DNA of 23,656 bases from assembly GCA_016840425.1 (NCBI GenBank), contig JAEOSI010000007.1:1-23656 (forward strand), read 5' to 3'. This DNA is from Candidatus Wukongarchaeum yapensis. Lineage in GTDB: Archaea; Asgardarchaeota; Wukongarchaeia; Wukongarchaeales; Wukongarchaeaceae. Below the pieces are notes generated by a model. The model had not been told where the DNA came from. It saw nothing but the letters and a program-made list of their open reading frames with translations, and did not search any database. Positions within the stretch are counted from its first letter, which is position 1; every line of letters begins with the position of its first letter. Position numbers and translations under genes: made by a program. Of the stretch, positions 1 through 12,514 are shown one piece after another.

Positions 1-7
1 ATTTCTT

Positions 8-96
8 GTTTTTTTGATTTTTTTCTCGTTTTTTGCTCTTTTTTAATCTCTTTGTTTCTTTTTTTCTGCTTGGAAAACGGGTTGTTTTTAGTTTTT
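8..96 (+). repeat. T-rich dispersed repeat, copy A (homologous to 11595-11676)
   Basis: 8-25 = 11595-11612 (18/18); 28-42 = 11616-11630 (15/15); 54-96 vs 11634-11676 (40/43). Confidence 0.85.
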
Positions 97-207
97 CTTT
101 TTTTATTCGTTTGAAAGCCTATATATTCACTTTTACGCCCCTCTTCTAAAACTTATATATGGAATATATTATATGTTATATGTACTTAATATAATAAGGT
201 AAGGAGT

Positions 208-1108
208 ATGAAGATCGGTTATCAAGTGATTAGCTACAAATTCAGGCTGTATCCGACTAAAGAGCAGAAAGAAAAGTTGTTGGAAGTCCTTGGTAGGTGT
301 AGGTTTGTCTACCACCAAATGTTAGAAGGTTTGAACAAACAGGAAAAACCGAATATGTTTGAGTTACAAAACTCTATTCCAGAGTTAAAAGAAAAGCATT
401 CTGAGCTGAAAAATGTATATTCTAAAGTTCTCCAACATGAACCATACAGGCTATTTTCAAACCTTAGAAGCTTGTCAGGGCTGAAGAAGAACGGTAAAAA
501 AGTAGGGAGACTTAGGTTCAAGGGTAAAAACTGGTTCAAAACTTTTACGTATAATCAGAGCGGGTTCAAAATTATCAAAGAAAAAGAAAGGTTCTAACAA
601 CTATAATAAACAAAAAATAAAAGTTGCAAAAAGCCATGAAAGGATCAAAAACCAGAGGGATGACTTCTTACACAAACTATCAAGGTATTATATAAACAAT
701 TGTGATTTAATAGCTGTTGAAAAATTAAACGTAAAAGGTTTGATAAGGATAAGTTATAATGCTCGGTATATAATGGATTCCTCTTGGAACAGATTCGCCC
801 AATTTCTGTCTTACAAGGCTGAAAGAGCTGGCAAGACAGTTGTAGAAGTGAACCCGAGAGGAACAACACAAGAATGTTATAAATGCGGTAAAGAAGTAAA
901 GAAAAGCGTGGCTGTAAGAACTCATAAATGTCCTTACTGTGGGTTAGAAATAGGCAGAGACTACAATTCTTCGTTTGTAGTCTTGAAAAGAGGTTTAGAA
1001 GAAGTGTTAGGGCAGGGACTGTCCAAATTTATGCCTGCGGAGACAGAACCTCTACCGAGAGAAATCTCGGCAAGTTCAGTCGTTGAATCAGGAAGCTCCT
1101 TGCAATAG
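208..1108 (+). pseudogene. tnpB: TnpB (RNA-guided nuclease) with an internal deletion and frameshift near 572-579
   Basis: 208-597 encodes the N-terminal HTH/REC part (YKFRLYPTKEQ). A different frame from about 572 reads LSKKKKGSNNYNKQKIKVAK...IAVEKLNVKGL...TTQECYKCG...CPYCG...RDYNSS. The RuvC-I (GIDxG) segment is missing. Confidence 0.9.
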
Positions 1109-1123
1109 CTGGGAGTAGTTCAC
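1074..1123 (+). ncRNA. 3' core of the TnpB omega-RNA (reRNA) scaffold / element right end; putative guide from 1124
   Basis: Two hairpins (TTCAG-TCG-TTGAA; CTCCTTGC-AATA-GCTGGGAG) ending in TCAC, overlapping the tnpB 3' end; 40/50 identical to 11703-11752. The true 5' end is not determinable. Confidence 0.65.
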
Positions 1124-2427: not shown

Positions 2428-2531
2428 TGGCGGGCCCGATGGGATTTGAACCCACGACCTCCTTAGAGTACGACCTTCAAGTCCGTATTGCTCCGAAGGC
2501 AGGCGCTCTTTCCAAACTGAGCTACGGGCCC
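2428..2531 (-). tRNA. tRNA-Arg(UCG) with a 26-nt intron at non-canonical 41/42 (2463-2488); CCA encoded
   Basis: Removing 2463-2488 restores the CCTGC/GCAGG anticodon stem with loop CT-TCG-GA; the junctions form a full hBHBh' motif; 78-nt mature length. Confidence 0.9.
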
Positions 2532-5968: not shown

Positions 5969-6730
5969 TTAAAAGGTGGAAAAGATTATATCAAACTTTT
6001 TTGTATCAACAAAAATTTCTGCAAGGCCTGTTTTAACTAAAAAAAGGAGTAGGTGCATAAGTTTTTCAGAAGATAAATTATCGTGGTTTTTTAAGATGTT
6101 TTCAAAGCATAGACAAAAGCTATAGTCGATTGAATTATACAAATTCGTTATTACGGCTTTTTCAAGATTTTCTTTTTTAATAAAATTTTGGAAGGAAGGA
6201 GAATTCAAATATAAATCAAAAACATTACGGCCTATACTCTTAAAAAAGTATTCTGAAGGTTTGTTAATAAGTTCTTCTGGAGACGGTAGTTTTTCCGCTT
6301 TTTCAAGGAAGATATCTCCAAATAGCTCCATCACCTTGCACTTGACTTTTTCGATGTTTTTAACACAATCTATAACTGTTATAAAATCTTCTTCTAATTG
6401 TTCAATAAGGCATTTAAGCTTCTCTGTAACCAGTTTTACGTGTTTTTTAGTTTTAAACTCCATTTCTTTTAATAAAAAGGCTGTAATAATCTGTTTTCCT
6501 GCTCCCACCACAACAGACTTATCATCGGACCTAAATTCAAGCCTTCCAGAACGCAGAATAATGTGATCTGAAACTTGTTTAATAGCAAAAATTGCCGCAG
6601 AAGCTAAGTCTAAATCCACGGATAATCGTTCTGTGGACACTACTTTTAAAATGGGTATGCCTCCACGGGTAAGGAGGAGGAAAGCCACAAAACTTTTGCG
6701 AAATTCTTCATCTATTGTTTTCATTGTCAA
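5969..6730 (-). CDS. Longin-like domain protein with a possible C-terminal winged helix
   Basis: N-terminal FLLLTRGGIPI...DLASAAIFAI...LEF...VVVGAG..IITAF pattern typical of longin/roadblock-like Asgard proteins; C-terminal LMHLLLFLVKTGLAEI; start may be ATG 6724. Confidence 0.5.
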   Translation of the reverse strand: MTMKTIDEEFRKSFVAFLLLTRGGIPILKVVSTERLSVDLDLASAAIFAIKQVSDHIILRSGRLEFRSDDKSVVVGAGKQIITAFLLKEMEFKTKKHVKLVTEKLKCLIEQLEEDFITVIDCVKNIEKVKCKVMELFGDIFLEKAEKLPSPEELINKPSEYFFKSIGRNVFDLYLNSPSFQNFIKKENLEKAVITNLYNSIDYSFCLCFENILKNHDNLSSEKLMHLLLFLVKTGLAEIFVDTKKFDIIFSTF

Positions 6731-9192: not shown

Positions 9193-9305
9193 TTAAAAAC
9201 ACCTTAAAAAGCAAACCACTAAAATAACCCTTAAAAACCAACATAAAACAATCTTCCACTATAAACTTCTAACCCAACCCTTAAAAAAGAAACGAAAAAA
9301 CAAAA

Positions 9306-9656
9306 TTAAGTTAAGATTATGACAGCGAATTCTGCTAACGCTTTCGCTATCAAAACTTCTCCAACCCCCATAAATAGTCCTGTAACTAGTCTGAGTAAAT
9401 TGTTGCTTACCCTGTACTCTAATAGTTGTGTAAACCCGTCTATAACACCTGGCAACATCAAAATTATGCCGACTAAAAAGCCAAAAAAGCCAACATTTGT
9501 CCATGAAAATAGGAGATATAGCATTGCCCATAAAGCACCGATAAGAATACCTGTACACCTTGCGCATAGAGGCATGGGCCTACCTTTTATGTGAATTGTG
9601 CGTTCAGGAATCCTGTGGCAAATAGCTATTTTGATCTCACGATTCCCGATCTTCAA
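9306..9656 (-). CDS. DUF2085-type membrane protein (CH..PER / CARCTG)
   Basis: CHRIPERT...PLCARCTGI...DGFTQ...SNNLLRLVTG, with TM helices. Confidence 0.85.
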   Translation of the reverse strand: MKIGNREIKIAICHRIPERTIHIKGRPMPLCARCTGILIGALWAMLYLLFSWTNVGFFGFLVGIILMLPGVIDGFTQLLEYRVSNNLLRLVTGLFMGVGEVLIAKALAEFAVIILT

Positions 9657-10735: not shown

Positions 10736-11374
10736 CTATGCAGTTATAACAAATAGTCCTACTACGAAGGTTATGAAGATACTTACATATTTTGCTGTTT
10801 TTTTGCTTACGGTGTAGCCTTCTTTTATGCCCTCGTTAAGCAGGTAGCCGAAAATAATTGTAGCGATTAAACCTATACTCTTAACTAAAATTTCTATAGA
10901 TGTTGTCCATTTTACTTCGAAGATACCCATTAATATGACGTATAATAGGGCTACGTATAGCATTGGTATCATTGCATATCCTGAGATGCTTGCAGAAATA
11001 TTTATGCTTCCTGTCGATTCTCTAAATGCTTTAATAGACGTTAAAATAAGAGCTGATAAGACTATCCAAGCAATCAAAAAGAGTATCCCAAGGGAGAATG
11101 CCCATGTAAGGACTATTATCGACTGTTCTTCGCCAACTTCTTCTGATAAACCTAAAAAATCCTTTTCATAAAGCCCCCTTCCAAGACCTAAAAGTGCTCC
11201 AATTAAAAAAAAGACTATAGCACTACTTTTCGAATTTGGTAATAAAGCAGCTTCAATAACTCCTCTTCTTGGAGAGAAAAAAGAAGAAATCAGTCTTTTA
11301 ACAACCGATTTTTCCACTATATTCTGAACTTTTTTATCTGATAAAAAATACGAATCTTTCGATGAAGTTTCCAT
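10736..11374 (-). CDS. Yip1-family membrane protein
   Basis: FFSPR start of the domain, SISGYAMIP motif, about five TM segments; GAGGT RBS upstream of the ATG. Confidence 0.7.
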   Translation of the reverse strand: METSSKDSYFLSDKKVQNIVEKSVVKRLISSFFSPRRGVIEAALLPNSKSSAIVFFLIGALLGLGRGLYEKDFLGLSEEVGEEQSIIVLTWAFSLGILFLIAWIVLSALILTSIKAFRESTGSINISASISGYAMIPMLYVALLYVILMGIFEVKWTTSIEILVKSIGLIATIIFGYLLNEGIKEGYTVSKKTAKYVSIFITFVVGLFVITA

Positions 11375-11594
11375 TAAAATAACCTCAAGAGCATGTTATA
11401 GTTTTAATAGGTCGTCTGTTTTTTTGTTGTTTTTCTTCTTTTTCCGTTTTGTTTTTTCGTTTTTCTGCGTGGAAAATTGGTTTTTGTTTTTGATATCTTT
11501 CTTATAACTTGTTTATTTTTGTTTTTATTTTTTGGGCGTGTTTTCGTTTTACATGGTTTTTTGGGGGGTGAATTGTGGTTTTCTCTTATTTTGT

Positions 11595-11676
11595 GTTTTT
11601 TTGATTTTTTTCATAGTTTTTTGCTCTTTTCTGGTTTCTTTTTTTCTGGGTGGAAAACGGGTTGTTTTTCGTTTTT
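11595..11676 (+). repeat. T-rich dispersed repeat, copy B (homologous to 8-96)
   Basis: Same alignment blocks as copy A. Confidence 0.85.
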
Positions 11677-11702
11677 TTGTTCTTTTTTTCAAAGTTTTTT
11701 CT

Positions 11703-11752
11703 GTTCAGTCGCTGAAACAGGAAGCTCACCGCGACAACCGGGAGTAGCTCAC
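11703..11752 (+). ncRNA. Orphan omega-RNA-like 3' scaffold
   Basis: 80% ungapped identity to 1074-1123, with both hairpins retained; expression not shown. Confidence 0.5.
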
Positions 11753-12514
11753 TAGCTCATTTTTTAGCTCTTTGATAGCTTTTACTACTTTTGATGAAGG
11801 GGAGTAATCAAGTAGTGGGATTCCTTTACTATCTGCTTCAAAGACCAAAGGGTCGTAGTTCAAAGTTACAAGGATTGGGATTCCGATCTCTTTTTCAAAG
11901 GATTGGATCTTTTCTTTTTCCTCTCCGTCTAAAATTTTGTTCACGATTCCTGCGATTTTTTTGACTCCTAAGGGTTTTGCGAGTTCTGTAATTCGTTTTG
12001 CTGTAATGATTGATTTAACGTTCGGTTCAAGGACCACTAAAAGTATGTCAACATTTTTCACTATTCCTCTTCCGAGGTGTTCTAAGCCGGCTTCAAGATC
12101 TAAAACTACAATTTCGTCTTTTTCTAATATGAGTTTTCTCAAAAGAGCTTTAATTAGTGCTCCTGCAGGACACATACAGCCGGTACCTGCTACACGAACA
12201 GTACCTACTACTAAAAGGTTAACGTTATCTTTGGTGGAAACTCCAAATTTTGAGGCGATATCATCCGCTTTAGGGTTGAGTTTGTAAACTCCTCCTTCAC
12301 CGCCGACTCTTTCATGGATTAATTCATGATTTTCACAGATCGGGACAATATCGTTTGCTTTTTCTGGGGATAAACCTAAAGCTATTCCTAAATTCGGATT
12401 GGAATCTACATCAACCGCTAAAACTTTGAAATTATCGCGGGCAAGTAAACGGCTTAAGGTGGCTGCAACCGTTGTTTTACCTACACCACCTTTACCACTT
12501 ACAGCAATCTTCAA
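11726..12514 (-). CDS. cooC: CooC-type Ni-insertion ATPase (CO dehydrogenase maturation, MinD/ParA-like)
   Basis: SGKGGVGKTT, VDVDSNPNL, GCMCP, DLEAGLEHLGRG; the last 8 codons and the stop come from the mini-element. Confidence 0.9.
   Translation of the reverse strand: MKIAVSGKGGVGKTTVAATLSRLLARDNFKVLAVDVDSNPNLGIALGLSPEKANDIVPICENHELIHERVGGEGGVYKLNPKADDIASKFGVSTKDNVNLLVVGTVRVAGTGCMCPAGALIKALLRKLILEKDEIVVLDLEAGLEHLGRGIVKNVDILLVVLEPNVKSIITAKRITELAKPLGVKKIAGIVNKILDGEEKEKIQSFEKEIGIPILVTLNYDPLVFEADSKGIPLLDYSPSSKVVKAIKELKNELVSYSRLSR

Follow-up and report, generated by a model that had tools for sequence, protein, structure and literature searches.

A 345-bp insertion in a Candidatus Wukongarchaeum yapensis genome is probably an immobile remnant of a tnpB-only transposon with a T-rich left end

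To gain insight into the TnpB-type elements of Asgard archaea, we analyzed a 23,656-nucleotide stretch of the Candidatus Wukongarchaeum yapensis genome (contig JAEOSI010000007.1, here called the window), in which an insertion of 345 bp (11408-11752) separates a gene for a CooC-like ATPase from a gene with a Yip1 domain. Our analysis indicates that this element is probably an immobile relic, reduced to its termini, of a single insertion of a tnpB-only IS200/IS605-type transposon (IS1341 type), belonging to a subfamily with a T-rich left end. The evidence for this reading includes: (i) the single occurrence of its fusion between a T-rich module and a right end; (ii) the lack of a left hairpin; (iii) the loss of the promoter and of most of the guide-RNA scaffold; and (iv) the fixation of the filled site.

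The window is contig C109 of an archaeal metagenome-assembled genome (MAG; G000, 2.16 Mb, 277 contigs, 38% GC), to which contig numbers below refer unless stated otherwise. It was compared with a sister genome of the same genus (G001, 87% complete), of which 1.79 Mb (contigs to 110 of 140) entered the comparison and about 0.1 Mb lay outside it; the two genomes align with a median identity of 88%. Right ends (RE) were inventoried by a strict sequence pattern, yielding 54 in the two genomes together, and the insertion site was surveyed in metagenome contigs, not raw reads, from four studies. DNA of the window was found again in metagenomes from marine sediment, seawater, marsh, and mangrove.

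The element lies directly 3' of TTTAA (11403-11407, plus strand), its insertion motif (transposon-associated motif, TAM, or target), and is followed by the right flank TAGCTCAT. The original prediction had placed a 345-bp element after TTTAA with a left boundary ambiguous by 3 nt, TAG being found both at 11408-11410 and at 11753-11755, and all of these coordinates proved correct on re-reading. The first nine nucleotides past the motif, TAGGTCGTC (11408-11416, plus strand), share this TAG with the start of the right flank and match TAGCTCATT (11753-11761) at six of nine positions. Since sibling copies with a T-rich left end (LE) hold exact duplications of 5-11 nt at the same position, this segment may represent a degenerate target duplication. 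The T-rich left module (11417-11702, plus strand) is built of two diverged units (11417-11523 and 11594-11705) that are 70% alike. Overall, the first 295 bp of the element are 62% T and 9% C, with 19 stretches of five or more T on the plus strand (genome mean, 1.8) and no A5 run. The last 50 nt (11703-11752, plus strand) correspond to the RE of a tnpB element type, with a hairpin CTCACCG..CGGGAG at 11725-11744 and the terminal oligonucleotide TAGCTCAC at 11745-11752. The adjoining flank TAGCTCATTTTTTAGC (11753-11768, plus strand) holds the last native codons of the cooC-like gene and, by analogy with the TnpB paradigm (PMC8612924), would be the guide carried by an omegaRNA made from the RE of the element.

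Both parts of the element have relatives in the same genome. Window positions 11584-11687 match positions 4-107, at the window start, with 71% identity ungapped and 81% gapped, and further matches to the T-rich module were identified at C189:10905-11180 (83%, E 2e-80), C208:16-283 (this contig matching twice), C89:2143-2379, and C54:11420-11611, with 81-84% identity over about 190-280 nt in modules that stand at the head of tnpB-type genes elsewhere in the genome; this homology is far above low-complexity chance. The RE (11703-11752) is 80% identical to the RE of the window-start element (1074-1123) and also matches about 25 others. Its GGAAG-CTCACCGCGACAACCGGGAG-TAGCTCAC segment aligns in register with 49 other REs whose stems covary, and the folding energy of its hairpin ranks 27th among 50 REs.

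The promoter cassette AAGCCTAATATATTCAC...AAGTTTATATA, which comes next after the T-rich module in full copies, is absent from the 345-bp element, as is any tnpB-like reading frame. The original description of a T-rich left module joined to a 50-nt right end, with promoter and tnpB lost, is thereby confirmed both in its parts and in its missing pieces. A left-end hairpin was not found in 11408-11702 (DNA fold z -0.97 against shuffled controls), nor was any significant fold in the T-rich part, and an open reading frame (ORF) at 11477-11755 (plus strand, 92 aa) falls in T-rich low-complexity DNA. The scaffold is reduced to its last 50 nt, compared with at least 110 nt in the amplified mini-elements of this genome. 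A search of the whole window against Rfam at the gathering threshold returned two tRNAs only, and a search of 11300-11850 at E<=1 gave no match on the element. Set against known families, the element has the RE hairpin, the terminal oligonucleotide, and the motif with a seamless empty site that mark IS200/IS605 elements (tnpB-only, IS1341 type), and lacks their left hairpin. It does not qualify as a stand-alone omegaRNA locus (incomplete scaffold, no promoter, no Rfam match), nor as a palindrome-associated transposable element (PATE) or miniature inverted-repeat transposable element (MITE), there being one copy of this architecture and a palindrome at the right end only.

The two flanks of the element abut in the sister genome (G001 C13, about 23433), where they read ...GTCATAGTTTTAT/TAGCTCATTTTTTAGC (a slash marks the junction here and below). 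This empty site was established by direct reading of the flank sequence. Two bases set it apart from the predicted AGTTTTAT/TAGCTCAT, one within the motif, which reads TTTAT where TTTAA was expected, so that the reconstructable empty site claimed earlier does exist, two bases off. At the junctions, TTTAA/element/TAGCTC in the window stands against TTTAT/TAGCTC in the sister genome, and the exact repeat amounts to 3 nt (TAG).

The insertion has altered its host genes. The gene on its right (11726-12514, minus strand) encodes a CooC/MinD-type P-loop ATPase (PF01656 CbiA, E 7e-20), with its closest homologues in Promethearchaeia and other Asgard MAGs. The last eight codons of this gene and its stop (11726-11752) come from the RE of the element, and the protein ends in ..ELVSYSRLSR. 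Because the CooC orthologues end otherwise, in ..ELIKL in G001 and in ..ELFDL in more distant Asgard archaea, the VSYSRLSR tail is element-derived; a native VSYSRLSR ending, which the original prediction had named as evidence against an insertion, was not seen among them. The Yip1-domain gene (10736-11374, minus strand; PF04893) lies about 20 nt downstream of cooC in G001, and in the window the 345-bp insert parts the two.

The element belongs to a large family with uniform right ends. G000 contains 31 matches to the TnpB zinc-ribbon domain and about 40 REs, each ending in ..GGGAGTAGTTCAC after a hairpin whose stem covaries (CTCCCTGC with GCTGGGAG, CCCCGTCC with GGGCGGGG, and CTCCCCCC with GGGAGGAG), with a uniform stop point at ..GTTCAC. 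Comparison of G000 with G001 revealed about 25 RE-bearing insertions with exact empty sites, and at least 15 other insertions with the RE type of the element are clean and lie 3' of TTTAA or TTTAT. Canonical LEs in both genomes carry a TCCCCTTGCGAAAGCTGGGGGA-type hairpin within about 20 nt of the motif: those starting with CTTCTTCGGCGAGAAG-TCCCCTTGCGAAAGCTGGGGGA are preceded by TTTAA, and those starting with ..CCGCAAGAAGACC..GGGAGGGGATGAAT by TTTAT, the two hairpin classes being alike in having at most 3 nt common to insert start and right flank. TnpB elements of Sulfolobus islandicus are reported to have the TAMs TTTAA and TTTAT (PMC10640517). Insertion of the IS200/IS605 type 3' of TTTAA or TTTAT is thus well supported in G000 by junction sequences, and TTTAA as target motif, as first suggested, agrees both with its recurrence (with TTTAT) at junctions of the RE family in two genomes and with the Sulfolobus work. 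The original prediction also asked for a cognate tnpA. G000 harbors one intact Y1 tnpA (C70:7637-7990; PF01797, 139 bits; 137-aa ORF), followed by a tnpB and predicted to be the partner of these ends, plus one tnpA fragment; no tnpA was found in G001 (87% complete).

Only one of the 54 REs in the two genomes is directly abutted by a T-rich module, namely that of this element. An exact 20-mer of its RE hairpin gave two matches in JGI metagenome contigs, both in unrelated GC-rich coding DNA. The same filled site recurred in contigs of four independent studies, and none of the sampled contigs showed an empty-site joint or a full-length precursor there. One of these contigs, from a mangrove metagenome, carries the same insertion with 76 bp deleted (11595-11670; joint 11594>11671, with 11 nt of microhomology).

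Decay of this kind is seen at related loci as well. The reference full-type element at the window start (1-1123, plus strand), clipped by the contig start, comprises a T-rich module (1-113), a promoter cassette (114 to about 205), and a tnpB pseudogene (208-597 plus 740-1108, plus strand) with an internal deletion of about 320 nt, ending in the RE at 1074-1123. The orthologous locus of G001 (C13:11172-11215) retains a remnant of about 40 nt ending in ..TTCAC. This sequence comparison shows that the window-start element is older than the species split and that its deletion in situ went stepwise. Among the siblings, the copy on C54 joins its T-rich module to the C-terminal half of tnpB and the copy on C143 is a further internal-deletion derivative; the deletion endpoints are unique to each. 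The window-start element has its left flank near position 14527 of C208, with a T-rich module of only one unit there.

G000 also contains amplified tnpB-less minis of about 200 bp in at least nine copies (C77:2985-3186, C77 about 5990-6190, C253:9828-10300, C168, C177:4055-4256, C147, C88, C160, and C201), three of which have exact empty sites in G001. Their layout is TTTAA/ followed by left hairpins, an AT-rich spacer, at least 110 nt of tnpB 3' end and guide-RNA scaffold, and an RE ending in GTAGTTCAC/. Judging by sequence, the true non-autonomous family of this genome is formed by these two-hairpin minis, whose design is unlike that of the 345-bp element. Micro-elements of about 45 nt (C160:798-847 and C104:5105-5154) read TTTAA/CTTATTCGGCGATAAG-TTCCCTTGCGAAAGCTGGGAGTAGTTCAC/, with LE and RE hairpins merged into one, and resemble the 52-bp terminal-only PATE of Haloquadratum.

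These results do not uphold the earlier proposal that the 345-bp element represents a non-autonomous family dependent on mobilisation in trans: no second T-rich/RE fusion exists among the 54 REs, its 20-mer has no relatives in metagenome contigs, the left hairpin is missing, the deletion endpoints of its siblings all differ, decay in situ is seen both at its own site and at the window-start locus, and the minis that did amplify are of another design. We regard as unlikely the strongest of the alternatives, namely that the element is an active mini-transposon (MITE or PATE), mobilised by TnpA in trans and inserted in its present short form. In its favor, both termini are present in some form, the position 3' of TTTAA comes with a clean empty site, the RE hairpin has been kept intact, G000 encodes an intact Y1 TnpA and houses trans-mobilised minis, and the sampled contigs show no full-length precursor. 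It is hard to reconcile, however, with a single copy, with the absence of a left-end hairpin, and with fixation in four studies; moreover, T-rich left ends vary and each has its own local target duplicate, which means a junction made in place and no later move.

We favor instead the following course of events for an immobile remnant. The element would have landed directly 3' of TTTAA or TTTAT, three codons before the stop of the cooC-like gene, most likely in the lineage of the present species after its split from the sister species. The joining of its right end, exactly at motif+1, is that of TnpA peel-and-paste transposition, and its left junction is non-canonical, with no subterminal hairpin and with a short copy of the target past the motif. 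A core deletion, more probably in place but possibly before insertion, would then have stripped out tnpB together with the promoter and the larger share of the guide-RNA scaffold. This route is suggested because the siblings form a graded series of unique internal deletions, with a precedent in PATEs (PMC3119063). Lacking a left hairpin, the remnant would not be excised by TnpA, and with no promoter and a 50-nt scaffold it would yield no working guide RNA; it would thus stay as a fixed spacer that gives CooC a foreign tail of eight residues and parts cooC from yip1.

Several points weigh against this reading. The RE hairpin is of ordinary stability and the right end is free of visible structural decay. 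No sample holds a full-length precursor at the site, so insertion in an already shortened form is possible. The polarity of the event depends on one sister genome, with no outgroup showing DNA-level synteny; assembled contigs drop rare variants, and a rare empty allele could therefore exist; and immobility is deduced from the parts that are missing.

The question of polarity leads to a second alternative, which we consider improbable, in which the element was ancestral to both species and was precisely excised by TnpA in the sister lineage, restoring the junction of motif and flank. It is true that excision of IS200/IS605 elements is seamless (PMC10055086), that an outgroup with DNA-level synteny is lacking, and that the window-start element predates the species split. 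Nonetheless, excision requires the left-end hairpin that the element lacks, and a tnpA was not found in the sister genome (87% complete). In addition, if the nine nucleotides past the motif are a target duplicate, excision would leave them behind, and the sister site has none.

The composition of the T-rich module bears on its possible role. Archaeal RNA polymerase terminates at oligo-T tracts. Because the module has 19 T runs and no A5 run, we infer, by analogy with the terminator hairpin at the left end of IS200, that in intact copies it may act as a one-way terminator array shielding the tnpB promoter from read-in transcription. In the 345-bp element the A-rich strand faces the cooC-yip1 transcript, which would meet no T run, and read-through to yip1 is plausible. 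The least probable alternative, that the host has taken the element over as a spacer or insulator altering cooC-yip1 co-expression, or draws on its RE for an antisense or orphan guide-like RNA, would suit the fixation in all four sampled populations, the retained RE hairpin, an orientation that keeps the operon coding strand free of T runs, the changed CooC tail, and the uncoupling of the two genes, but the element has no promoter on its own strand and no Rfam or structural signal, tolerates a 76-bp internal deletion, and is not shared by the sister species, whose operon is intact, and a neutral immobile insert is equally expected to be fixed.

The left junction of the remnant is shared with its subfamily and departs from the family pattern. 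In all seven tnpB-type copies with a T-rich LE that were measured, the motif is followed by a copy of the first n target bases, then by T-rich DNA, and finally by the RE and the target itself, the RE in every case being joined precisely to motif+1. The duplicate just past the motif measures 3-11 nt in these seven copies, compared with 0-3 nt in hairpin-bearing copies (Mann-Whitney p = 9e-5 for 7 vs 15 loci, which are few and related). An exception among the latter is the copy on C232, with an LE truncated by some 7 nt and a duplicate of 7-8 nt. Both junctions were read in the filled genome for six of the seven T-rich-LE copies; the right end of the C19 copy lies off its contig. In G001, the duplicates measure 11 nt on C17 (TTTAA/GTGGTTTTGTT/) and 10 nt on C15 (TTTAT/TTAGATTTTA/.., with a right flank of ..CAC/TTAGATTTTA and a single copy at the empty site). 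In G000, the duplicate spans 8 nt on C125 (TTTAA/TTATTGTG/), 7 nt in one element divided between C208 and C180, whose flanks are adjacent in G001 C43 (TTTAA/CAAGGTT/), 5 nt on C54 (TTTAC/TGTAG/), and 8 nt, seven of them matching, on C19 (TTTAA/TATTTCTG/ against the sister target TATTCCTG). The 345-bp element itself (TTTAA/TAG/) has 3 exact nucleotides, or the six of nine noted above. An imperfect duplicate of 10-11 nt was seen on C87, and one of 14 nt in a T-rich-LE element carrying a 615-aa TnpB-related gene. The first T-rich base varies between copies, and because the duplicates correspond to the respective local flanks, every left junction must have arisen where it now lies.

These junctions are not what canonical peel-and-paste transposition predicts. 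This raises the possibility, which we advance tentatively, that the T-rich-LE subfamily, including the 345-bp remnant, has an origin other than standard two-ended peel-and-paste transposition. Two routes fit the junctions. In the first, a one-ended TnpA transfer would join the RE to motif+1, and the left side would be sealed by host repair after the free motif end had been extended on the sister duplex. In the second, TnpB would cut the vacant site and imprecise repair would leave the duplicate. TnpB cuts 15-21 bp from the TAM (PMC8612924), and cutting at this distance would explain the ceiling on duplicate length (11 nt for the tnpB type, 14 nt for the copy with the 615-aa gene). Both routes imply dead-end products, in agreement with the 345-bp element being a relic.

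Three other explanations of the subfamily were considered and rejected. Spread of LE-less copies through TnpB cutting at ectopic guide-matching sites was set aside, as the right flanks show no relation from copy to copy. An origin of the T-rich module as a canonical LE deaminated from C to T, prompted by the likeness of some parts (GGGGGGTGAATTGTGG vs GGGGATGAATCGTGG), does not hold generally, since a left end of about 60 nt could not have yielded 295 nt at 71% pyrimidine. A retroelement-like origin, suggested by the A-rich tail of the opposite strand and the variable duplications, does not fit a module that is a conserved complex sequence and whose derivatives are internally deleted, not 5' truncated.

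The T-rich module is associated with more than one gene type. The same promoter cassette AAGCCTAATATATTCACTTTTACCCCCCTCTCCATAAAGTTTATATA is present at 11 loci in G000 and G001 and heads three TnpB-type genes (MKIGYQVISYKF.., MRRTVTE.., and a third type on G001 C15), which suggests that module and promoter have been swapped together, in modular fashion, between element types. The 615-aa TnpB-related gene, located behind the same module and promoter, has RuvC-like motifs and weak TIGR01765 and guided_TnpB matches, and no zinc-ribbon match was found in it. Elements with this gene are found in G000 at C189:10883-13116 and C110:11712-13550 and on C3, C89, C123, and C268. At six loci their right ends adjoin base 1 of tRNA genes, and the left junction of the C189 and C3 elements holds a second copy of 10-14 nt from the tRNA 5' end. 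The 2.16 Mb of G000 contain 97 tracts that extend over 150 nt or more and have a T content of 58% or higher on one strand, and only some of them are tnpB-associated modules. In another genome of the same phylum (G007, C4:1-1833), about 400 nt of GT-rich, strongly strand-skewed DNA weakly matches the T-rich module and is followed downstream by a TATA-like box and an ORF with a Cas1-resembling end.

Two further features of the window were observed. The two Rfam tRNA genes (2217-2333 and 2431-2531, minus strand; 117 and 101 nt) have identical 5' and 3' exon ends, were found by ARAGORN in neither case, and probably contain introns. In addition, window positions of about 9301-9310 are the empty site of a 1,958-bp insertion carried by the sister genome (G001 C13:19383-21340), which ends in ..GGGGTAGTTCAC and whose target resembles ATTAA/GTTAAGATTATGAC.

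Known systems offer close parallels. The PATEs of Haloquadratum walsbyi derive from IS605-type/IS1341-type transposons and have near-terminal palindromes at both ends and no target duplication, and short remnants result when elements of 1.5 kb suffer core deletions (Dyall-Smith et al., 2011; PMC3119063). Like the terminal-only PATEs, the 345-bp element consists of protein-less fused ends of an archaeal tnpB-type element, is an insertion specific to a strain or species, and has a contiguous empty site; unlike them, it has a right palindrome only, a left part of 295 T-rich nucleotides, perhaps a short duplicate of the target, and one copy (PMC3119063). By this analogy, the element works like a terminal-only PATE and probably arose like one. 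The PATE-like, omegaRNA-encoding ISGst elements of Geobacillus stearothermophilus are likewise tnpB-less, have an end and a motif in common with the tnpB elements of their genome, and have a single tnpA available in trans (Meers et al.; PMC10055086), but they, and the ~200-bp minis of G000, keep both ends and the full scaffold, whereas our element keeps 50 nt and no promoter. In S. islandicus, TTTAA precedes IS200/IS605 elements with tnpA and tnpB, and TTTAT those with solo tnpB (SisTnpB1; Xu et al., 2023; PMC10640517), as in our motif pair; that system belongs to another phylum, its TAM function was shown biochemically and ours is deduced from junctions, and a T-rich left module is not described there. 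The RE hairpin followed by a terminal oligonucleotide, the joining of the RE at motif+1, and the absence of a fixed-length duplication recall IS608 and ISDra2 peel-and-paste transposition (PMC8612924; PMC10055086). In that paradigm a left hairpin is needed and no duplication is made, in contrast to the T-rich subfamily, whose left terminus is variable and hairpin-less and which shows a target repeat of 3-11 nt (14 nt in the copy with the 615-aa gene). The element is a known kind of relic, and what is new is a subfamily-wide, hairpin-less T-rich left end with motif-proximal target duplications.

As a single object, a gene-less relic of a TnpB transposon carries little weight, although it illustrates that an insertion can rewrite a protein C-terminus and split an operon without being purged. 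At the level of the family, about 25 empty sites in two congeneric Asgard-type genomes fix the TTTAA and TTTAT motifs of a TnpB family without experiment. The T-rich subfamily breaks the rule of this family through its missing left hairpin, its variable left ends, and its short motif-proximal duplications, and this junction anomaly is the part worth following. If repair after TnpB cutting is the true route, the junctions would be natural footprints of RNA-guided homing in Asgard-type archaea; if one-ended TnpA transfer is, they would be footprints of a one-ended route of transposition, and either route would explain the permanent fixation of the copies. TnpB relatives in the eukaryotic lineage are reported to have given rise to Fanzor (PMC3627910). 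Should either route hold, these junctions would provide a genomic read-out of the interplay between an RNA-guided nuclease and an HUH transposase in archaea close to the eukaryotic lineage.

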